Assembly: GCA_938083015.1 (NCBI GenBank)
Contig: CALKCX010000003.1
Span: 14,793 to 78,792 of the forward strand
DNA from: an uncultured Candidatus Micrarchaeota archaeon
Lineage (GTDB): Archaea; Micrarchaeota; Micrarchaeia; Anstonellales; J096
DNA: 64,000 bases
Direction of reading: 5' to 3'
In this document: piece by piece, positions 15,210 to 56,953 of the stretch
Position numbering within the stretch: the stretch's first letter is position 1
How the letters are laid out: each line of letters opens with the position of its first letter
The notes under the pieces: generated by a model
Databases searched by the model: none
Told to the model about the DNA's origin: nothing
What the model saw: only the letters and a program-made list of their open reading frames with translations
Position numbers and translations under genes: made by a program

Positions 15210-16817
15210 ATGAATGTTGTAGTTGAAGCAGAATTAGATAAAAGATTAGAAGAACTTAGATTAAACAATCCTGAAACTGAGCGCAAAGTAAAAATAGCTT
15301 TAAGACAATTTCTTACACAGACAGATACAACAATAACACTTAACGTTAATCCTTACAATGCAAACATGATAAGAGAATGGCTAATGAAACATTATCCTGA
15401 AATATCTGTAACTACTGTTAACAAAAGACAAAATGGTACTGAAGATATAGTTTTGAGAAAAGGGCAAAAAATGCCCATGTTTATAGACCAATCTATTCTT
15501 AGTATAGATCAATTAGTAAATTCGTTAAATAGCAATGGTGTGGTAAAAAATAGCGTAAAAGATAATCTATATAGATTAGTAAAAGGCAATACTTATAGTG
15601 TGACATTGAATTTAAATAGCGATAACGCTAATAAGGTGAAACAATGGGCAGAAGAATATGGTTATGAAGTTTCACTACGAACTGCTCAGAATGGTTTGGT
15701 AGATATAACTATAAGAAGACATAAGAAAGTATCTTCTTTAGACAGACCACAATCTAATCAAAACTTAAATACAGGTTTACCTAAACATCTTGATCATAAT
15801 TTCTATCGTGGTATAAAACATGTATATGAGGCATTGAAAGGTACTTCTTTCTTTGATTATTATAGCACGTTATCTGATGAAAAGAAAGAATTGTTTTTAT
15901 CATTCATGTGGGGTGTATATATGAGAAGTGTAAACGAAACACAAAAATCAAATCCAGAACTGTTTGGACAAATAGGCTCTGTAAGAACTTTATTTTCAAA
16001 ATTAAATAAACACAATATAATATCGGAATTTGAAGCTAGATTAGAAAGAGCAGAAAGACAGACAAAAATGGCAATAGAAATCCTTGAACAAAAATTCTCA
16101 AAAGAAAATAAATCGTTGAAAAACTTCTTAGGTTCAAATTATAAAGAATTTGAAAAAGCACTAAAATATATTTTTATGGAATGGAAATTTGATGATAATA
16201 CTATTAATTCTATATTGAACAGTATATCTTATCAAACTATTGATAAATTATATAAAGCTTTAATTGACTTTAGAGCAAAAAACCATAGACATTCTCCAGG
16301 TAAAGATGTATCTAATCAAGATCTAGCAGAGATAAGCTTATCAACAATTCTATTTAGTAAAATGTTTGGAGTAGATTCAGAATTAATCTTGGCCATTATA
16401 GGACAAGAATCTAATTTTAGAAAACAAGCATGGAATGATGGAAATATAGGCATGACTCAACAAAGTGGGCAAGGTTGGAACATGTATGTATTCGGTTCAA
16501 GATACCCAGGTATGTTAGAAAATTATATGAAAGCTAGATTTAAAAGAGCCGGATGGCAAGGAAATCCTGATTATCAATCACCTTTAGTAAATAGAACTTT
16601 ATTAGCAAATCAAAATATAACAATGCAAATATATACTGGTGTAATAACATTGGTAGGTAAAGCTATTGAAAAATATGGTACAAATACAGATCTGTCTAAC
16701 TTAGATAATAGAAAAGATGTTGTATATCAAATTGCCAGGGGATACAATGGAAGCAAATTAGCAAATAGTTATGCTTCTGCAGTAGTTAGTAGTCCACTTT
16801 GGAATTTAGATTTGTGA
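15210..16817 (+). CDS. Protein with two N-terminal about 45-aa tandem repeats and a C-terminal lytic transglycosylase (SLT / lysozyme-like) domain.
   Basis: SLT motifs LILAIIGQESNFRKQAWNDGNIGMTQQ (ES...G-L/M-xQ), NQNITMQIYTGV and QIARGYNGSKLA (AYNxG). Repeats TITLNVNPYNANMIREWLMKHYPEISVTTVNKRQNG and YSVTLNLNSDNANKVKQWAEEYGYEVSLRTAQNG. No obvious signal peptide. Confidence 0.6.
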   Translation: MNVVVEAELDKRLEELRLNNPETERKVKIALRQFLTQTDTTITLNVNPYNANMIREWLMKHYPEISVTTVNKRQNGTEDIVLRKGQKMPMFIDQSILSIDQLVNSLNSNGVVKNSVKDNLYRLVKGNTYSVTLNLNSDNANKVKQWAEEYGYEVSLRTAQNGLVDITIRRHKKVSSLDRPQSNQNLNTGLPKHLDHNFYRGIKHVYEALKGTSFFDYYSTLSDEKKELFLSFMWGVYMRSVNETQKSNPELFGQIGSVRTLFSKLNKHNIISEFEARLERAERQTKMAIEILEQKFSKENKSLKNFLGSNYKEFEKALKYIFMEWKFDDNTINSILNSISYQTIDKLYKALIDFRAKNHRHSPGKDVSNQDLAEISLSTILFSKMFGVDSELILAIIGQESNFRKQAWNDGNIGMTQQSGQGWNMYVFGSRYPGMLENYMKARFKRAGWQGNPDYQSPLVNRTLLANQNITMQIYTGVITLVGKAIEKYGTNTDLSNLDNRKDVVYQIARGYNGSKLANSYASAVVSSPLWNLDL

Positions 16818-35061: not shown

Positions 35062-35177
<116 letters not shown>

Positions 35178-35189
35178 TTAAATATTTCC

Positions 35190-35200
35190 GATTTTTTAAT
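35190..35200 (+). terminator. T-tract (gaTTTTTTaat). Probable archaeal intrinsic terminator of the 5S rRNA.
   Basis: Oligo-T run 13-20 nt downstream of the 5S 3' end. Confidence 0.4.
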
Positions 35201-35206
35201 AATTAC

Positions 35207-36424
35207 ATGTTAGGTACTTCTGGAATAAGGGGAAAGTATGGAGAGAAGATAACACCGTCTTTAATATACAATGTTTCAAATAAATTCGCACAAGGAAAGA
35301 ATATTGTATATATAGGTAAAGATATAAGAGATAGCTCTGATGCTTTATATTATGCTGCTATATCTGGTGCTTTATCGGCCGGTAGTAGAGTTTACGGCAT
35401 AGGTACAGTTGCCACAGGTATATTAGGATTTGCAGGTACAGGTATGATGATAACAGCTTCTCATAATCCAGAATATGATAATGGTATTAAATTCTTCATA
35501 GATAATATTGAACTTACTAAAGAACAAGGAGAATTTTTAAATTTAGAAATTGATGAAAAACATAGCGGTCTATACATAGATTATCAAGAGAGATTATTTG
35601 ATAAATATATGAAAAATCTAGATGTTTTTGATTTTGATTTTACTTTAGAACCAATAGATTTAAATTCATCTGCTTATACATTTTTCAATTATTATATTTC
35701 TCAAACTAGAATAAGATTAAAATTGATAGACAATACACCTTATTTTCTTAGAAATAGTGAACCTATACAAGAGAATGTAAAAATAGATAGAGGATTTATG
35801 TTAGATGGAGATGGAGATAGGGTTGTATTAATTAGAGAGAAAAAAATAATAGACGGTGATAGGATGTTTGCAGCTTTGGCCAAGTATATGCACGAAACTA
35901 GAGGAACAGATGTATTAGTAGTTACAGTAGAATGTCCAATAGCAATAAAGAATTATTTAAGTAATTTTTACAATAAGATAATCGTAACTAAAGTCGGATC
36001 TAATTATATAGCACAGAATTTAAAAAATTATAAAAATGTAGGTTTTGGGGGAGAACCAAATGGCCATTATATCATTCCTTCGTTTAATCTTACCAGTGAC
36101 GGAATAGCTGGTATGGCATTAATTACAGAATTTCTAAAAACACATCAAAGCTTACCAGAGATAAATTATAGAATAATACGAAAGAAATTCAATGTTAATA
36201 ATAAAAACAAAGTAATAGAAGGATTAAAAGAGAGTATTTCGAATTATGAAGATATTGACGGTATACTTATAGAAGATGAAAACTCAAAAGTATTGATAAG
36301 GGCAAGTGGGACAGAATCTTTGATAAGATTGACCATAGAAGGCCCAGAAGGTAAGATAAATGAATTAATTCAAAAATATGAGTCTTTAGTATTAGAAAAT
36401 ATTAAAAAACATGACAATCTATAA
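35207..36424 (+). CDS. Phosphoglucomutase/phosphomannomutase-family phosphohexose mutase (GlmM/PMM-like). The track ORF starts at 35150 inside the 5S rRNA; the likely start is MLGTSGIRG at 35207.
   Basis: The N-terminal GTSGIRG motif and the active-site Ser loop ITASHNPEYDNGIKF. The Mg-binding block DGDGDRV is also present. Confidence 0.8.
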   Translation: MLGTSGIRGKYGEKITPSLIYNVSNKFAQGKNIVYIGKDIRDSSDALYYAAISGALSAGSRVYGIGTVATGILGFAGTGMMITASHNPEYDNGIKFFIDNIELTKEQGEFLNLEIDEKHSGLYIDYQERLFDKYMKNLDVFDFDFTLEPIDLNSSAYTFFNYYISQTRIRLKLIDNTPYFLRNSEPIQENVKIDRGFMLDGDGDRVVLIREKKIIDGDRMFAALAKYMHETRGTDVLVVTVECPIAIKNYLSNFYNKIIVTKVGSNYIAQNLKNYKNVGFGGEPNGHYIIPSFNLTSDGIAGMALITEFLKTHQSLPEINYRIIRKKFNVNNKNKVIEGLKESISNYEDIDGILIEDENSKVLIRASGTESLIRLTIEGPEGKINELIQKYESLVLENIKKHDNL

Positions 36425-38253: not shown

Positions 38254-38774
38254 AGATAATTCTAATTACTGGTAAAAGAGGGGCAGGTAAGACTGAATTT
38301 GCTAAGATGATAGCTAAAAACATTCCAGTTTATGAAATGTCAGAATATGTTTATAGAGAAATGAAGAAGGCAAACATTGATAAATTTGATGCCATTACTG
38401 TAGGTCAATTCGCTAAAGATCTTAGAAAAAAATATGGTAATGATATTGTAGCTAGATTATTATGGGATGATATTAAAGATAAGCAAATAGTTGTAATTTC
38501 TGGAGCTAGATCACCTGAAGAAGTAGATTTCTTTAGACAGAGAGCTAAGGTAATTGTCATAAAAATAGATGCTAAACCTGAGATAAGATATGAGAGAATT
38601 GTTCAAAGAAATAGACACGGAGATATAAGATCTTATGAACAGTTTTTAGAAAAGGAAAAATTAGATGAACAATTAGGAGTAGATCAAATTATAGAAGACA
38701 TTATCATAGACAATAATCATGATATAGATTTATTGAAGAGAAAAATAGATCATCTAGTTGATTTTATAATCTAA
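38250..38774 (+). CDS. P-loop NTPase / small nucleotide kinase (dephospho-CoA-kinase-like UPF0200 family). ATGA-coupled to thrS.
   Basis: Walker A at the N-terminus: ILITGKRGAGKTEFAK. 174 aa. Confidence 0.5.
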   Translation: MKIILITGKRGAGKTEFAKMIAKNIPVYEMSEYVYREMKKANIDKFDAITVGQFAKDLRKKYGNDIVARLLWDDIKDKQIVVISGARSPEEVDFFRQRAKVIVIKIDAKPEIRYERIVQRNRHGDIRSYEQFLEKEKLDEQLGVDQIIEDIIIDNNHDIDLLKRKIDHLVDFII

Positions 38775-39551
38775 ATCGTTTCTAAAACATAGGGTAACAT
38801 TTACATTACATCTATAAGGAGAATTTATAGAGATTCTTAAAGGTAAATCTAAAATCATAGGATTTCTTCCATTTGTTAACTCTACTAATGAATCTATACT
38901 AATAGCATAGATAGATAGAATATTGCAATCGTTTTCTACATATATATCTAAAATAGAATCGTTAATAGTTCTATTTATAGGTATATCGTAATAATATATA
39001 AAGCCTTCCATAAGCTCACTATTAAAAGAGTTACATGTTTTAGTAGCTAACATAGTTACATACATAGTACCACCAGAGCAAAACATACCTATACCTACGT
39101 ATACTAGATCATCGCTTAATAACAATCTTCTATGTCCAACACTTTGAAACCAACTATCTACTACCATTTTAGCAGATTTAGCAGATGTATCACATGTCGT
39201 ATGTTTTGACATAAATAAATTCTCTCCAGCTATGAAAAATAGATATTTATTGTCTAATAATCTATCTTCTACGTTTTTTCCATCTTTGTCAAAATGACTA
39301 AAGAAGTTTTCTCTATACATACGGATAGAATAAGATCTAGCAATATAGCTTAACCTATTATCAAATACGTATGGGGAAAGATTGTAATCTATTCTAATTC
39401 TATTGATAAATTGAAAGACCATGTATTCAAATTCATTAGCAGGAGGAGCGTCTGATCTTTTAAATATTTCTGGGTCTGTTTTGTTTACACACGCAGATAC
39501 GATAAAAAGTAGACTAATCAGTAGAAATCTCAAGTAAAGATCTGTTTTCAT
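38754..39551 (-). CDS. Secreted CAP/SCP/PR-1-like domain lipoprotein. The track ORF extends to 39590; the likely start is MKTDLYL... at 39551.
   Basis: Signal peptide with a lipobox-like LFIVSAC. CAP-domain blocks FINRIRIDYNL...AGENLFMS and VVDSWFQSVGHRRLLLSDDLVYVGIG (compare GHYTQVVW...VGCA). Confidence 0.55.
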   Translation of the reverse strand: MKTDLYLRFLLISLLFIVSACVNKTDPEIFKRSDAPPANEFEYMVFQFINRIRIDYNLSPYVFDNRLSYIARSYSIRMYRENFFSHFDKDGKNVEDRLLDNKYLFFIAGENLFMSKHTTCDTSAKSAKMVVDSWFQSVGHRRLLLSDDLVYVGIGMFCSGGTMYVTMLATKTCNSFNSELMEGFIYYYDIPINRTINDSILDIYVENDCNILSIYAISIDSLVELTNGRNPMILDLPLRISINSPYRCNVNVTLCFRNDLDYKIN

Positions 39552-39665
39552 CGGGCATTTTATACCATATTCTATAAACATTAAATTCAAGCTGATCTAT
39601 TGAATTTACTTCAACAACTTTTTTATCGATTTTAAAATCCTTCAAAGGAGAATACCTTCCCATGT

Positions 39666-51915: not shown

Positions 51916-53613
51916 ATGATTACAATAATATTAATTGTGGATGAGTTCGAAGAAATTCTAATATCTACACCGATAGATAAAATAATTCAGATAATAAAAG
52001 ATGAGCGTGAAGTAACTAGCTCATATTTAGCTTTAAAGACAAAATACGATCAAACTACTATTGAAGAATGGGTTAGATACTTAGAAAGAGAAGGAATAGT
52101 TGAAATAAAATATCAGTTTAATGAAATGTACATATCTTGGAATGCTCCTAAGAAAGAAGAAGTAGAGGCCAGAAAAGAGAAGGTAAAGTCAAGAATTGAA
52201 AATGTTGAAAATAGAATATCACAGCTTAAGGAAGATGTTGAAATTGAGATAAAAATTGTATATGAAATTGTTGAACAGCTTGGGCAGAAGTTAGAACAGA
52301 TAGCTTCAGATAGAGATAAATTGATTATCTTCATATCTCAATTTCAGAGATTCAAAGAAGAATTTGATAGAGATATATCTTTAATTAACAGAGATATTGA
52401 AAAGACTGCAACTCAAATAGATGATAAGTATAGACAAGTATCTTCCTTTGCAGGTATGATTGCTGAAGTATCAACATCAGATATATCTCAAACAGAACAA
52501 GAATTGAGAAAATCAATAGATGAGAAAATGAAATTAATAGAAAATAGAATGAAAGATCTTGATGTTTATCTTGAAAAACTATCGAATTTCTCTGAAAAAG
52601 ATGTAGAGAATTTAAAAGATAAATTAGATGAGATAAATCGATTTAAAGAAGTATTAGATAATAGCAAATATATAGAGCAAGAACTTAGAGAAATTGTTAA
52701 ACGATATGAATATATACTTGAAATTCTTACTGAGAGAGAAAAACTATTGGCAGAATTGCAAGAACTAAATAAGAAAAATGTAGAAATACAGAATTCTTTA
52801 ACTAATATGACAGGCACTATATTTGAAATAAATGATAAGTTACAAAAAGTAGTACAAGATTACTATGAACTTCAAAGTAGATCTGCTGAATTGGCCACAC
52901 AGATCAAAAATAATCAAGATATACTTAAAAATGTAGAAATAAAAGATACTTCTGCTATAGAAAGAGCTTCAGCAATACTAGAAGAGTTAAGAACTATAAG
53001 ACAAGAATTACAGTCGTTTGACAAATTAGCAAAAGAAGCAGAAATTATAATAGATAGATTACAAGATATTGGAAAGGTAAGAGCTAATTTAGAGAAATAT
53101 AGAAGAGAATACCTTTTAGAAATAGCAAAATATGCAGAATTGGTAAATGATGATTTAAAAACACTAGAGACTTTGTTAGATATCAAAAGAAGATTAATAT
53201 CGGAATTGTCTCAATATAAAGAAACAATATTGGGCTATGAAGACGAATTTAAGAAATATGTAAAATTATTTGTAGAACAGAAGGAATCGTTTAATTCTAT
53301 GAAAAATTTACTATATGATATGATGACCAATGGGGAAATAGCAGAAGGATTGAAGAAGATTCAAGAGGTATTAGTAGGTGTTGAACAATTAAATACAAAA
53401 TTAGAAGAGGCAAGAAGATTATTAATAGAATTAGAAGAGATTAAGATAAACATAAATATCATAAATAAAGAACTAAATCTTATAAAACTTAGAACTCCGG
53501 AAACAGAGAAAGAGATACAGCAGAAATTGGATTATCAAGAAAAGGCATTAAAGGAACAACAGATAAAAAGGCAGACTCTAGAAGATTGGATACGGGGATT
53601 TACAAAAAAATGA
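51916..53613 (+). CDS. Hypothetical protein: N-terminal winged-helix-like domain followed by about 480 aa of Lys/Glu-rich coiled coil.
   Basis: The N-terminal about 80 aa (IDKIIQIIKDEREVTSSYLALKT...TIEEWVRYLEREGIVEIK) has HTH-like periodicity. The rest is heptad-rich (EIEIKIVYEIVEQL..., LEELRTIRQELQSF...). There is no TM segment or signal peptide. It is ATGA-coupled to the next gene. Confidence 0.4.
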   Translation: MITIILIVDEFEEILISTPIDKIIQIIKDEREVTSSYLALKTKYDQTTIEEWVRYLEREGIVEIKYQFNEMYISWNAPKKEEVEARKEKVKSRIENVENRISQLKEDVEIEIKIVYEIVEQLGQKLEQIASDRDKLIIFISQFQRFKEEFDRDISLINRDIEKTATQIDDKYRQVSSFAGMIAEVSTSDISQTEQELRKSIDEKMKLIENRMKDLDVYLEKLSNFSEKDVENLKDKLDEINRFKEVLDNSKYIEQELREIVKRYEYILEILTEREKLLAELQELNKKNVEIQNSLTNMTGTIFEINDKLQKVVQDYYELQSRSAELATQIKNNQDILKNVEIKDTSAIERASAILEELRTIRQELQSFDKLAKEAEIIIDRLQDIGKVRANLEKYRREYLLEIAKYAELVNDDLKTLETLLDIKRRLISELSQYKETILGYEDEFKKYVKLFVEQKESFNSMKNLLYDMMTNGEIAEGLKKIQEVLVGVEQLNTKLEEARRLLIELEEIKININIINKELNLIKLRTPETEKEIQQKLDYQEKALKEQQIKRQTLEDWIRGFTKK

Positions 53614-56264
53614 TACTTGTCTTCTTATTACTTTTCTCTGGTTGTATTGATCAAATTAATCAACAATTAAAGGCCTCTAGTGATGCTTATAAAAATTTAG
53701 GTATTGCTGAAAATGTATCTGTGCAATATGATAAGAATACTTTAATTAATGTGTTAAAAGAAGCTAAAAAACAGTATGAATCAAGAGAAAACGGATCTGT
53801 GTATACATTGGTATGCAATTATTCTAAATTAAAGAAAGTAGGTTGGGATAAGTTTAAGGCTTATTGGAAATTCTTATTAGGAGATAAAAAAGCTTTGTTT
53901 GACGAATCTCTAATTGGTGGAGAATGTTGGATACAAAATGTTAGTCATTATCCTAGTATTGAAGCTATTATTGTTTCACCTTATCTTTCTGTAAGTGAAA
54001 TAAAGAAAAATCAGGCTTTTTATAAAGTTATTATGGAAGATGATGGCCGCGTATACATAGAAGATATATCCAAATTAAGTGATCAAGAGATAGAGAAAAG
54101 ATATAAATTATTTCACAGATTCTTATTCTTTGGAATAGGTTCTGGTCCATCTTTCTCTGATTTCAATGAACTTAATCCATTTTGCAATAATTCTTTAAGA
54201 TATCCAATTAAATACATTTCTGGTACTAAAACACAATATCTTTTACCAGCATTACCTGATATAAGAGCTGCTTGTTATCTAGATCTTGGTTATATACCTG
54301 TATATGTCTTTTATAGTAAATACGGTATTCCAGAAGTAGATAATTCTGCATTATTAGTAGCTAGACTATCTGGAGAGGCCTATGGAAATCAAGGACACGT
54401 AGGACCTGTAATATTGTTTACAGAAGCTTCTATTACTCCTGATGAATTATTACAAGGATTAGATGTAAATTCAAATACACCTGTTGCAGGTAGGATAAAG
54501 GCACAAGTAGTATCTTGGAAAATACTCTGTCCAAGTTGTCTAATTGGTCTATCAATACCTTTTGATGTTAAACATCAACATCTAAAGAAATTAAAAGATA
54601 TTATACTATCGGATAGTTTTCTCTATGAAAATGTTTCAATAATAGGTTTTGGTCTAGATGTTGATAAATTAGATAATAAAGATTCTGTTGCTGAGCTAAT
54701 TTATCGAATGGATAGTTTAATAAGATTTTCAAGAGATCTCGGTAAACCAAGTGCAATAACATACATGTATATTCCTCAATCTTGGTTAGAAAAGAAGATT
54801 AGACCAGATGGATACAAATATAGTAATTTTGATTACATTATGAAAACAATCTATTCTACTGAAGGAATAGGTACTATGGCCTTATCGCAGATGACTGGAA
54901 AGGGTTTGATGATGCTACCATCTCCTCCGCTAATTCCAGAATCAATGATAATATTATTGGGCAAAAACAATCCTATATCTGTACTTACATCTGGTTTTGA
55001 TAAAAATGAACAGGTATTTTCCTATACTTTAAGTTATTGTAAAGAGTATTTTAAGGTAGATCAAGGATTACCTGTAATATACTCGTCTTCCGGAGTAGAT
55101 CTATTAGGTATTAGTCTAGCAAGTAGAACATCTTATTTTAAAGATACTCCTGATTATAGAGAACCAATATACAATCCACCTAAAATATACGATATAAATG
55201 ATAAGGATGATGTTGTATTTAAATGTGTTGGTTGTTTTCTTATGTTAAATTCTAGTCAAATTAAAAATTATAAAAACATATTTAATACTGCTAGATATAC
55301 AAAAGGGTGCAATGAACCTGATGAAAATATAGTAAAGAAGATAAAATTCTATTCAGATATAATAGATATGGATCCACCTTTTATAAGAGCTTTAATAGAC
55401 GAGCTTACAAATTATAATCCTAATCATGTATCATTTGCAAAAGATGCAAAAGAACAAATGGAAAGATGTGGTCATAATCTTACATACGATGCTGTTAAAT
55501 CAATGTTACCAAATACGCCTAAGATTAGCGATTACGTATGTGGATTCGGTATTATGGATGTAAAACTTGATATAACTAAAGAAATCATTAGTCCATGTGA
55601 AAACAGTAATAACATATTAGGTAAACGAATATTTGAAATAGACATAAATATGTGTAAAGGTATATTATTATTAGCTAATGCTTCAGATCAAGCAGAACAG
55701 TTAATAAAACAATATAGTAAATATATGGCAAAAGATCTCGAAGATAGATATATGATATATCGAATGATGCTAACAGCTCTTATATATGATCAAGGTAGGA
55801 ATTTTACAGAAGCTACTGTGTCATATTTTAATGGTATAAACAATGACGGTTTAGTTGATCAGATTAAGACTGTGGGATTAACTGGTCAAAAGAATGAAGA
55901 TGATAAAAAATGTGAAGATTATATGAGCTTGGATAAATTCTTTCAATATTGTTGTTATTACGATGGCAATAGGTATGAAATGATAAATGGTTATTGTAAA
56001 AAAATAGCTGATTATGAGAATTATTGGGATTTCTTATTAGGTATGAAACTTGCTCGAGGCTTTATGTATAGTAGCAATCCCGATTATTTTATATCATTTA
56101 AAGAAGCTTATTTAAAAGTAGAGAAAACGTTAAATATAACATCCAAATACTTCGATGTGTATGAGAAATGTAAAGATTGTGCAGATGAGAATTGGGCAGA
56201 TAATGTTAATAGAAAGATAAAGCAAATATGTGGCAATTTACCTAATCTACCTATGTGTAAATAG
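53610..56264 (+). CDS. Large secreted cysteine-rich, N-glycosylation-sequon-rich protein (putative lipoprotein; surface/S-layer-like or host-interaction candidate). The track ORF starts at 53586; the likely start is MILVFLLLFSGC at 53610.
   Basis: N-terminal signal peptide with a lipobox-like LLFSGC. About 24 Cys over 884 aa, including CC and CxxC pairs. Many N-x-S/T sequons. No TM anchor at the C-terminus. No recognised catalytic motif. Confidence 0.4.
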   Translation: MILVFLLLFSGCIDQINQQLKASSDAYKNLGIAENVSVQYDKNTLINVLKEAKKQYESRENGSVYTLVCNYSKLKKVGWDKFKAYWKFLLGDKKALFDESLIGGECWIQNVSHYPSIEAIIVSPYLSVSEIKKNQAFYKVIMEDDGRVYIEDISKLSDQEIEKRYKLFHRFLFFGIGSGPSFSDFNELNPFCNNSLRYPIKYISGTKTQYLLPALPDIRAACYLDLGYIPVYVFYSKYGIPEVDNSALLVARLSGEAYGNQGHVGPVILFTEASITPDELLQGLDVNSNTPVAGRIKAQVVSWKILCPSCLIGLSIPFDVKHQHLKKLKDIILSDSFLYENVSIIGFGLDVDKLDNKDSVAELIYRMDSLIRFSRDLGKPSAITYMYIPQSWLEKKIRPDGYKYSNFDYIMKTIYSTEGIGTMALSQMTGKGLMMLPSPPLIPESMIILLGKNNPISVLTSGFDKNEQVFSYTLSYCKEYFKVDQGLPVIYSSSGVDLLGISLASRTSYFKDTPDYREPIYNPPKIYDINDKDDVVFKCVGCFLMLNSSQIKNYKNIFNTARYTKGCNEPDENIVKKIKFYSDIIDMDPPFIRALIDELTNYNPNHVSFAKDAKEQMERCGHNLTYDAVKSMLPNTPKISDYVCGFGIMDVKLDITKEIISPCENSNNILGKRIFEIDINMCKGILLLANASDQAEQLIKQYSKYMAKDLEDRYMIYRMMLTALIYDQGRNFTEATVSYFNGINNDGLVDQIKTVGLTGQKNEDDKKCEDYMSLDKFFQYCCYYDGNRYEMINGYCKKIADYENYWDFLLGMKLARGFMYSSNPDYFISFKEAYLKVEKTLNITSKYFDVYEKCKDCADENWADNVNRKIKQICGNLPNLPMCK

Positions 56265-56266
56265 AT

Positions 56267-56953
56267 ATGAGAGAAACCATATTTCCTGAATTAAAACCTG
56301 GTTATAATGATGTAAAATCTTATAGTACTAATGGTCCAGAAGTGAGAACAAGGTTTACGATAAAAAAAGATTGGGTAATGACAATAGCTGATACTCCTGA
56401 AAATCATGTTCAACCTGTACATTATCATACTAAAAAGAAAGAAACTATATTTATAATAAAGGGATGCGGAGCTATCGTATATTATGTTAATGGAGAGGAA
56501 TGTCAAACAGTAGTATGTGGGGCGACTATGGTGAGTTTCTATGAAGGTATCTCCCATACTTTAAAGGCGATTACCAAATTTCCAAATTTTAGTATAAAAA
56601 GATTTACCGAAGATGATTATTCATTAGGAATATCTGAAAACAAAACTCATCCTTATATTAGGCGTCTTTATCATCAAGATGGATTAATAAGATTAATCCA
56701 TAGACCTGACGGAGAGAATATAGGAAGAATTGGAGTATACATAATAGATCGTAAAGAGAAGATCGAAGAATTACTTAGGAAAATGCGACAATCGATAACA
56801 CATCTTACCATAATTTATATAAAGGGTAGTATTGGTATAGATGGACATACTTTTGAAGGTGGAATAATAAAATTAGATGAATCCTTTGATTTAAGATCTT
56901 TAAGTATTTATGATTTAGATTATGCTATAATATTGAAGACATCCTCAAGATGA
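56267..56953 (+). CDS. Cupin-domain protein with an unknown C-terminal extension.
   Basis: Cupin motif 1 fits PVHYHTKKKETIFIIKGCG (G(x)5HxH(x)3-4E(x)6G). It begins 3 nt after the stop of the preceding gene. Its 3' end overlaps the glyS 3' end by 34 nt on the opposite strand. Confidence 0.4.
   Translation: MRETIFPELKPGYNDVKSYSTNGPEVRTRFTIKKDWVMTIADTPENHVQPVHYHTKKKETIFIIKGCGAIVYYVNGEECQTVVCGATMVSFYEGISHTLKAITKFPNFSIKRFTEDDYSLGISENKTHPYIRRLYHQDGLIRLIHRPDGENIGRIGVYIIDRKEKIEELLRKMRQSITHLTIIYIKGSIGIDGHTFEGGIIKLDESFDLRSLSIYDLDYAIILKTSSR

Follow-up and report, generated by a model that had tools for sequence, protein, structure and literature searches.

The DNA considered here is a 64,000-nucleotide (nt) stretch (the window) of contig CALKCX010000003.1 from an uncultured Candidatus Micrarchaeota archaeon (GCA_938083015.1), and within it three consecutive genes of the + strand, which an initial annotation made from the letters of the sequence had proposed as a candidate undescribed cell-surface module. 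They are gene 1, coding for a winged-helix-like and coiled-coil protein (51916-53613, open reading frame (ORF) of 565 amino acids (aa)), gene 2, coding for a cysteine-rich extracellular protein with a putative lipobox anchor (53610-56264, 884 aa), and gene 3, coding for a cupin-like protein (56267-56953, 228 aa); the three ORFs lie where they had been placed. The gene 2 product is a divergent member of a Micrarchaeota protein family that combines a barrel of the clan GH-A type with an SLT domain. In the reading that we favour, with a confidence a little above even, it is a lipid-anchored protein of a glycan-hydrolase family whose SLT site has been lost and whose barrel still works, and its two neighbours are functionally unrelated to it.

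Gene 2 and its family

Sequence searches of Pfam, NCBIfam and the PDB using the 884-aa protein or a profile of its seven orthologues gave no match, and close homologues numbered only seven among 5.8 billion clusters. When the seven-orthologue profile was searched against 1.84 billion representative sequences, 133 proteins were retrieved at E<=1e-3, 49 of which also pass E<=1e-10. These representatives are mostly 700-1000 aa long, and the stretch they have in common corresponds to residues ~175-400 of the query, often continuing to ~610-800. Organism names were attached to three of the ten family clusters sampled, and all three were Micrarchaeota or Bilamarchaeaceae. The architecture of the family consists of a lipobox signal, an N-terminal domain, a GH-A-type (beta/alpha)8 barrel, a Cys-rich linker and an SLT domain (GH23-like, with the goose-lysozyme fold).

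A structural model of the 884-aa protein was obtained with AlphaFold2 using an alignment of 95 sequences (predicted local distance difference test (pLDDT) 89.6, predicted template modelling score (pTM) 0.88); it replaced a model from a seven-sequence alignment, which at a pLDDT of 45 was unusable. According to the secondary structure of the model, an N-terminal alpha/beta domain (residues ~40-170, 53727-54119, + strand as for all domains of this gene), in which C69 and C106 are 100% conserved in the family, is followed by the barrel (residues ~172-480, 54123-55049) and by the Cys-rich linker (residues ~481-570, 55050-55319), which is marked by the conserved C539, C542 and C567 and drops below pLDDT 50 at residues 504-516. 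The degenerate SLT or goose-lysozyme-like domain (residues ~571-745, 55320-55844) was delimited by the SLT matches of relatives, the family alignment and matches to the BFVD collection of viral models, and the protein ends in a helical, Cys-rich extension (residues ~746-884, 55845-56264), where C768, C782, C796, C854 and C857 are conserved family-wide. The statement that gene 2 has no recognisable enzyme motif therefore fails at the level of the family, because the relatives carry SLT motifs and the folds are enzyme folds. The protein also clearly matches a known class of enzymes in structure, which had been named beforehand as one outcome that would tell against the proposal.

The N-terminus of the protein, MILVFLLLFSGC, has the form of a signal peptide with a lipobox, MILVFLLLF-SGC (53610-53645, + strand), in which C12 is the putative lipid-attachment cysteine. 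In an alignment of 87 members of the family, 97% have G11 and 99% have C12. The stretch LLLF-S-G-C12 can be read as a lipobox, with an atypical Phe at position -3 when compared with the pattern [LVI][ASTVI][GAS]-C. An in-frame TTG at 53586 is an alternative start of gene 2 and would supply a Lys-Lys (KK) n-region to the signal peptide. Beyond the N-terminus no transmembrane segment was detected in the 884-aa protein (no 19-residue window above a Kyte-Doolittle value of 1.6), as the initial annotation had also noted. A second putative lipoprotein is encoded elsewhere in the window (38754-39590, - strand): its 278 aa include a CAP / cysteine-rich secretory protein domain (Pfam CAP, E 1.6e-12), and its signal is of the lipobox type, LLFIVSAC (MKTDLYLRFLLISLLFIVSAC). 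Lipobox signals are therefore in use in the genome from which the window derives.

Cysteines make up 2.6% of the gene 2 protein. There are 23 rather than the approximately 24 first counted, although the high content stands, and all 23 are invariant in the seven orthologues, down to an identity of 35%. Without the lipobox cysteine 22 are left, enough for 11 disulfides. The number of N-x-S/T sequons is 11, against 5.8±2.2 in shuffled sequences, of which 2% reach 11, and four of the 11 sequons are invariant among the seven orthologues. The earlier description of a secreted, lipobox-type, disulfide-rich and probably N-glycosylated protein is thus borne out by G11/C12, the invariant cysteines and the mild enrichment in sequons; going by these sequence features the protein would be lipid-anchored, with up to 11 disulfides, and is probably N-glycosylated. 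Typical family members have about nine more conserved cysteines than the lineage of the window, and at window positions 59, 64, 126, 358, 451, 456, 501, 605 and 812 a Cys is present in 62-89% of the family; in the thermophilic lineage the gene 2 family takes a trimmed form.

The named homologues belong to metagenome-assembled genomes of Candidatus Anstonellales / Micrarchaeota from hot springs, and the window likewise derives from an Anstonellales genome (Micrarchaeota, DPANN), probably of a hot spring. Redboyarchaeum, a hyperthermophilic genus of Anstonellales, is reported to have genomes of 0.33-0.77 Mb that are low in G+C and in which a median of 39% of the genes overlap, and to dominate at sites at or above 80 °C (PMC12892359). 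The G+C content is ~30% across the window, and the compaction of the window, described below, and other features fit this ultra-reduced hot-spring genus, to which the window would appear to belong.

The SLT domain and the barrel

The SLT model of Pfam matches 11 of 57 relatives of the gene 2 protein (best E 7.7e-9, the others near the cut-off of 21.3 bits), the matches mapping onto window residues 578-693, and a Peptidase_M23 domain is present in five of the 57. For the 884-aa protein and its six close orthologues no Pfam SLT match was obtained at E<=1. A Foldseek search of BFVD using the whole model as query returned LT_GEWL, SLT and muramidase proteins (probability 0.84-0.93, E 0.09-0.5), and residues 572-760 of the model are mostly helix with two short strands. 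In the family alignment most members show the motifs DPxxxRAxxxxES, CAxGLMQ and Y-x-G in this order. In this consensus and in a domain predicted as all-alpha the family resembles the bacterial family-1 lytic transglycosylases (Slt70, MltC, EtgA; PF01464, CAZy GH23), and EtgA and MltC are the top PDB sequence matches of the family profile, at non-significant E-values of 0.046-0.76. Unlike these enzymes, the 884-aa protein has neither the catalytic Glu nor a Pfam SLT match, and it has Cys-rich loops between motifs I and II. The canonical SLT motifs in most members, together with the M23 domains in a few, suggest that the ancestral job of the family was the cleavage of cell-wall-type glycans outside the cell.

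The window itself has RALIDE-LT in place of RAxxxxES and GIMD in place of GLMQ. In motif I, L599-T600 occupy the positions at which Glu is found in 74% and Ser in 81% of 86 aligned relatives, and the column of the catalytic Glu reads L/L/L/T/H in the clade of the window. Motif II is G647-I-M-D650, its last position being Gln in 70% of the family, and an Asn-Pro conserved in the family is R673-I674 (RIF for NPF). Motif III, I-Y726-D-Q-G729, keeps YDQG and with it the Tyr and the Gly; the SLT residues retained in the window are D588, R593, A594, G647, M649, Y726 and G729. Judged from this alignment, the lysozyme-type site is very probably inactive in the lineage of the window. With the Glu replaced by Leu and with Q650 and N673-P674 changed, the SLT domain of this hot-spring lineage would at best bind glycan strands.

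An alternative is that the protein is a fully active hydrolase of cell walls with two sites, in which the SLT acid has shifted to D/E597 or E598 and which attacks bacterial murein for predation or scavenging. The family is of the murein-hydrolase type, with its SLT motifs and its M23 domains, the acid two positions before the lost Glu is kept in all seven orthologues, the seven SLT residues just listed are retained, and purifying selection is strong (57-80% identity, all Cys kept). These points are countered by the L/L/L/T/H column at a position where Glu predominates, by the change of the GLMQ Gln to Asp and of Asn-Pro to Arg-Ile, by the helical geometry, since a position two residues earlier would be expected to face elsewhere, and by the probable habitat in hot springs, at or above 80 °C if the window is from Redboyarchaeum. 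In such hot springs archaea without murein predominate, and the hosts of Micrarchaeota are archaea, as known in part from pairings with Thermoplasmatales hosts. We regard an active murein hydrolase as distinctly unlikely.

The barrel matches the folds of GH5, GH26, GH10, GH53, GH42 and GH2, and the Foldseek results agree. The matches align 233-274 residues, mostly at about 3.0-4.3 Å and mostly at 7-14% identity, and the fold is the (beta/alpha)8 barrel of clan GH-A; no CAZy or Pfam family model matches it. The ends of strands beta4 and beta7 were assigned from the secondary structure of the model and the alignment and not by superposition of coordinates, and any catalytic reading of the barrel is tentative for that reason. 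On this assignment E272, in GPVILFTE, lies at the end of beta4 after strand 268-270; it is Glu in 89% of the family and Asp in the protein P0007, and is preceded by Thr, not by Asn. The end of beta7, after strand 381-387, carries Pro389 in the clade of the window, in a column filled by Asp or Glu in 52 of 90 relatives, so that no nucleophile was found there. The barrel thus departs from characterised clan GH-A members (GH5 mannanases/cellulases, GH26, GH10, GH53) in its low identity, in having Thr-Glu instead of Asn-Glu on beta4, and in Pro389 at beta7. Among the signature residues of the family barrel, N189, R219, Q299, K379, Y385 (99%) and W392 are kept in addition to E272, and D343 -> S, G435 -> M, Y439 -> P and D/E389 -> P have changed.

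These four barrel losses, added to those of the SLT site, would suit a pure pseudoenzyme, in which the barrel and the SLT domain are both dead and the protein acts as a rigid, disulfide-locked surface adhesin or spacer. With the Asn-Glu pair missing from beta4 and beta7 ending without an acid, the canonical retaining mechanism of clan GH-A is indeed unlikely. The retention of E272 (Asp in P0007) and of the six other signature residues is the counterweight, as it fits a ligand pocket that is still used, and we hold a wholly dead protein to be unlikely. Under the preferred reading of a lost SLT site beside a working barrel, the modelled pocket would still be under selection and is likely to be the working site, either for binding or possibly for a non-canonical hydrolysis; the sequence cannot separate a binding-only from a catalytic role of the barrel. 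Its ligand may be a glycan of a host, of a neighbouring cell or of the own envelope, which the barrel would bind and perhaps hydrolyse.

The neighbouring genes and the conservation of the locus

The module reading of the initial annotation has a cytoplasmic coiled-coil protein of filament-like form tied by translational coupling to a glycoprotein for the S-layer or for host attachment, and to a servicing cupin. Its starting point was the packing of the three genes, and the features described are present: genes 1 and 2 share an ATGA stop/start overlap at 53610-53613, and the stop of gene 2 is separated from the ATG of gene 3 by a 2-nt spacer. To judge what such packing signifies, the junctions of neighbouring ORFs no shorter than 120 aa were surveyed within the 64-kb window. 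Overlaps occur at 23 of 54 junctions; on the same strand, 8 of 37 are overlaps of exactly 4 nt and the gaps have a median of 4 nt. Coding DNA amounts to ~97%. Because overlaps and short gaps are the norm across the window, the packing of the three genes is uninformative as a sign of coupling.

Other points speak for the module. The gene 2 protein is predicted to be secreted, bears a lipobox, is rich in Cys and is enriched in sequons, and the glycosylation genes that had been thought able to service it, GlmS, GT4 and PMM/PGM (the last at 35150-36424), were confirmed in the window. A coiled-coil gene also lies directly upstream of gene 2 in all nine loci whose gene 2 product is at least 35% identical and for which upstream DNA is available, with a 4-nt overlap or a spacer of 22-42 nt. 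The proposed role of gene 2 as an S-layer protein fared less well. SLP_Mh (Micr_00292), identified by experiment as forming the S-layer in Ca. Micrarchaeum harzensis, is comparable in being a secreted, glycosylated surface protein of ~100 kDa from a micrarchaeon, but it contains S-layer domains of the TIGR01564/TIGR01567 types and is nearly devoid of sulfur amino acids, whereas the 884-aa protein has its 23 Cys, enzyme folds and no match to S-layer models, an NCBIfam scan having returned 0 families at E<=1. With no S-layer domain and a composition unlike that of SLP_Mh, an S-layer protein is disfavoured, and this also counts against the module.

Gene 1 had been described as a winged-helix-like N-terminus followed by a long coiled coil, and this description stands. 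All nine aligned gene 1 homologues (8 of 13 database clusters) are 558 aa long, their first residue aligning with GTG 51937, for which reason the true start is probably this GTG (558 aa) and not ATG 51916. The latter would add seven residues, MITIILI, found in none of the aligned homologues, one of which itself starts with GTG. A TTTAAATA box lies ~25-30 nt 5' of GTG 51937, as for a leaderless archaeal transcript. The first ~75 residues of the protein are non-periodic and highly conserved, and residues ~78 to ~450 show a strong 3.5-residue hydrophobic periodicity of the heptad type (z 3-9). All family matches of the N-terminal domain are below threshold and all are to winged-helix families. 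The best, covering the N-terminal ~80 residues, is Sul12a, a DNA-binding chromatin protein of Sulfolobus (E 3.6e-6, with 9 of 10 orthologues giving this match; 27 bits for gene 1 against a cut-off of 150), followed by weaker matches to TrmB, MarR, HTH_24 and WH_KIN17. A profile search of the PDB and Pfam with the putative winged-helix domain alone returned winged-helix families only, all at E>0.0005.

With SMC, Rad50 and the archaea-specific SMC-related proteins gene 1 shares the long heptad-periodic coiled coil and differs from them in having no ATPase head; a search for the P-loop motif [AG]x4GK[ST] in the gene 1 protein found none, and the SMC, Rad50 and ASRP models match it at their coiled-coil arms only (18-24 bits against cut-offs of 300-1000). 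The idea of an SMC/Rad50-type fragment was consequently rejected. No signal peptide or transmembrane segment was found in the gene 1 protein, which by its sequence is probably cytoplasmic. This, together with an N-terminal domain that resembles DNA-binding winged helices, tells against a surface module. Gene 1 would on our reading be a cytoplasmic winged-helix and coiled-coil protein separate from the lipoprotein, its nearest likeness being a DNA-binding chromatin protein.

Gene 3 can be read as cupin-like, with a putative HxH...E metal site, on family matches that are all below curated cut-offs. Pfam Cupin_1 gave E 0.0032 (17.5 bits, cut-off 22) and the WbuC cupin E 7.9e-5 (22.5 bits, cut-off 42), PDB cupin matches were sub-significant, and the metal-site pattern H52-Y-H54, E59 and H97 is invariant in four orthologues. 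The predicted protein is like the WbuC-family and D-lyxose isomerase-type cupins in its putative single cupin barrel and its HxH...E...H pattern, and unlike them in an extra C-terminal region of ~110 aa. The 3' end of gene 3 overlaps the convergent ORF of glycyl-tRNA synthetase (GlyRS) by 34 nt (56920-56953), so that the coding needs of GlyRS on the opposite strand may also act as a constraint on the conserved cupin C-terminus ILKxSS.

The loci of relatives are designated by L numbers; a 12-sequence alignment served for a locus search. Gene 1 precedes gene 2 in L001, L002 and L007-L012, the loci with a gene 2 at least 35% identical and with upstream DNA available; in L006 the contig ends just past the coiled-coil gene. 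The junction of the two genes is a 4-nt overlap in L001 and L010-L012 and a spacer of 22-42 nt in L002, L007, L008 and L009. In the same genomes, however, the whole block RpoB-RpoH-GDH-[gene 1]-[gene 2]-GlyRS-orf129-DUF92 (GDH, glutamate dehydrogenase) is syntenic, and in L001, the most distant of the loci with both genes, its downstream half is still conserved. The adjacency of genes 1 and 2 is conserved in one lineage only and amounts to no more than general synteny, the block from RpoB to DUF92 being as syntenic as the proposed module; the wider gene 2 family is never paired with a gene 1-type coiled-coil protein.

The third gene does not follow this pattern. The cupin is present in the window, in the genome of P0022 and in L002, L007 and L009, and it is absent from L001, L008, L010 and L011, gene 2 directly adjoining GlyRS in L008. 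In the group with 56% identity the cupin reaches only 23-25% across 91 residues, against 56-76% for its neighbours. Because the cupin is missing from four orthologous loci and diverges fast where it is present, the trio is not a conserved unit; of the synteny that was to be checked in relatives, the pair of genes 1 and 2 was recovered in close relatives, and the full trio is lacking in some of them. The cupin is dispensable, variable and fast-evolving, and stands outside any conserved unit. Taken with the evidence on packing, S-layer models and gene 1, this makes a dedicated surface module very improbable in our view, and we think it similarly improbable that genes 1 and 2 are functionally linked. 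The three genes lie side by side because there is almost no intergenic DNA in this genome, not because they form a module.

More distant family members have a different upstream partner. In eight independent loci a same-strand protein of ~1,600 aa is encoded upstream of the gene 2 homologue (L003 950-5953, complete; L013, L015, L018, L024 (partial, more than 1,550 aa); L022, L025 and L017). The giants share homology among themselves (blastp E down to 0) and have no Pfam match, and the only complete copy, in L003, carries an apparent signal peptide. At several of the loci the opposite strand encodes, further downstream, DUF1699_N (a weak match), DUF530, Topo VI A and Topo VI B. The giant protein and the gene 2 homologue may be a conserved, previously undescribed gene pair in mesophilic Micrarchaeota. 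No homologue of the giant protein was found within the 64-kb window, and the idea that gene 1 is its remnant was rejected at an hhalign probability of 0.1. In another locus (L005 2770-3865, protein P0024, a gene 2 homologue with 26% identity) the SMC kleisin ScpA and ScpB, its winged-helix partner, are encoded directly upstream; the resemblance to the winged-helix/coiled-coil neighbour in the window is possibly a coincidence. One could also imagine that in mesophiles the lipobox GH-A-barrel/SLT protein and the giant form a two-protein apparatus for host contact or wall attack, and that the hot-spring lineage lost the giant at this locus, disabled the lysozyme site and re-wired the remaining protein, whose gene is joined by the 4-nt overlap to that of a winged-helix/coiled-coil protein, to this cytoplasmic partner, which positions or regulates an adhesin, for example at a site of host contact. 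We judge this scenario quite improbable.

Several observations weigh against the interpretation that we prefer. The SLT assignment of the 884-aa protein, which by itself has no sequence match in Pfam, NCBIfam or the PDB, comes from the homology of its relatives and from the weak fold matches at E 0.09-0.5. The clade retains the acidic D/E597, which might take the place of the lost Glu. The catalytic positions on beta4 and beta7 of the modelled barrel are those given by secondary structure and alignment. Finally, genes 1 and 2 remain neighbours down to 35-39% identity, including in L001, which has another upstream context.

The remaining neighbours are housekeeping genes for the most part. On the 5' side of the trio GDH, RpoH, RpoB and RpoA are encoded on the opposite strand, and on the 3' side GlyRS, a 129-aa ORF and DUF92 are followed by GlmS and the GT4 glycosyltransferase. 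Other genes of the window are mainly of the same kind (MCM, EF-2, ValRS-type and ThrRS synthetases, an aCPSF-type beta-CASP nuclease, MscS and mevalonate-diphosphate decarboxylase), and a 535-aa ORF (15210-16817, + strand) has no Pfam family at E<=0.001.

Extracellular SLT-domain proteins of DPANN archaea

Large extracellular proteins of the murein lytic transglycosylase type have been described in Pacearchaeota and Woesearchaeota (fam00969; Castelle et al. 2021, PMC8204110), GH23 proteins in Woesearchaeota (PMC9723730), and three genomes of Micrarchaeota have been noted to encode a 'lytic murein transglycosylase' (Chen et al. 2018, PMC5864196). Such SLT-type proteins of DPANN have been read as tools to attach to or attack other cells (PMC8204110, PMC9723730, PMC5864196). 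The gene 2 protein belongs to these known extracellular SLT-domain proteins in an altered form. It is like them a large secreted protein of a reduced DPANN genome with an SLT-type domain and an inferred action on foreign envelopes, a likeness drawn from their published descriptions. It is unlike them in that the SLT Glu is a Leu, in its lipobox anchor, and in the size of its family (700-1000 aa as against up to 3,000 aa), and the most conserved part of the family is the GH-A-type barrel, which those papers do not mention. In a limited search of the literature we found no description of the combination of SLT and a GH-A-type barrel, of the lipobox anchor, of a family-wide pairing with a giant protein or of the catalytic loss of SLT in the hot-spring lineage.

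Little is known of the ways in which ultra-small DPANN archaea attach to other cells and exploit them, and secreted SLT-domain proteins are among the few recurrent candidates. To this class of candidates the family adds a defined Micrarchaeota architecture, with a putative lipobox anchor, a GH-A-type barrel and an SLT domain, as predicted in a high-confidence model. The apparent three-gene module is to be seen as a by-product of extreme genome compaction, and with it a false lead is removed. In the lineage of the window the lysozyme-type residue has been lost while the protein has remained strongly conserved, which points to a shift from wall cleavage to binding or to barrel-based chemistry.

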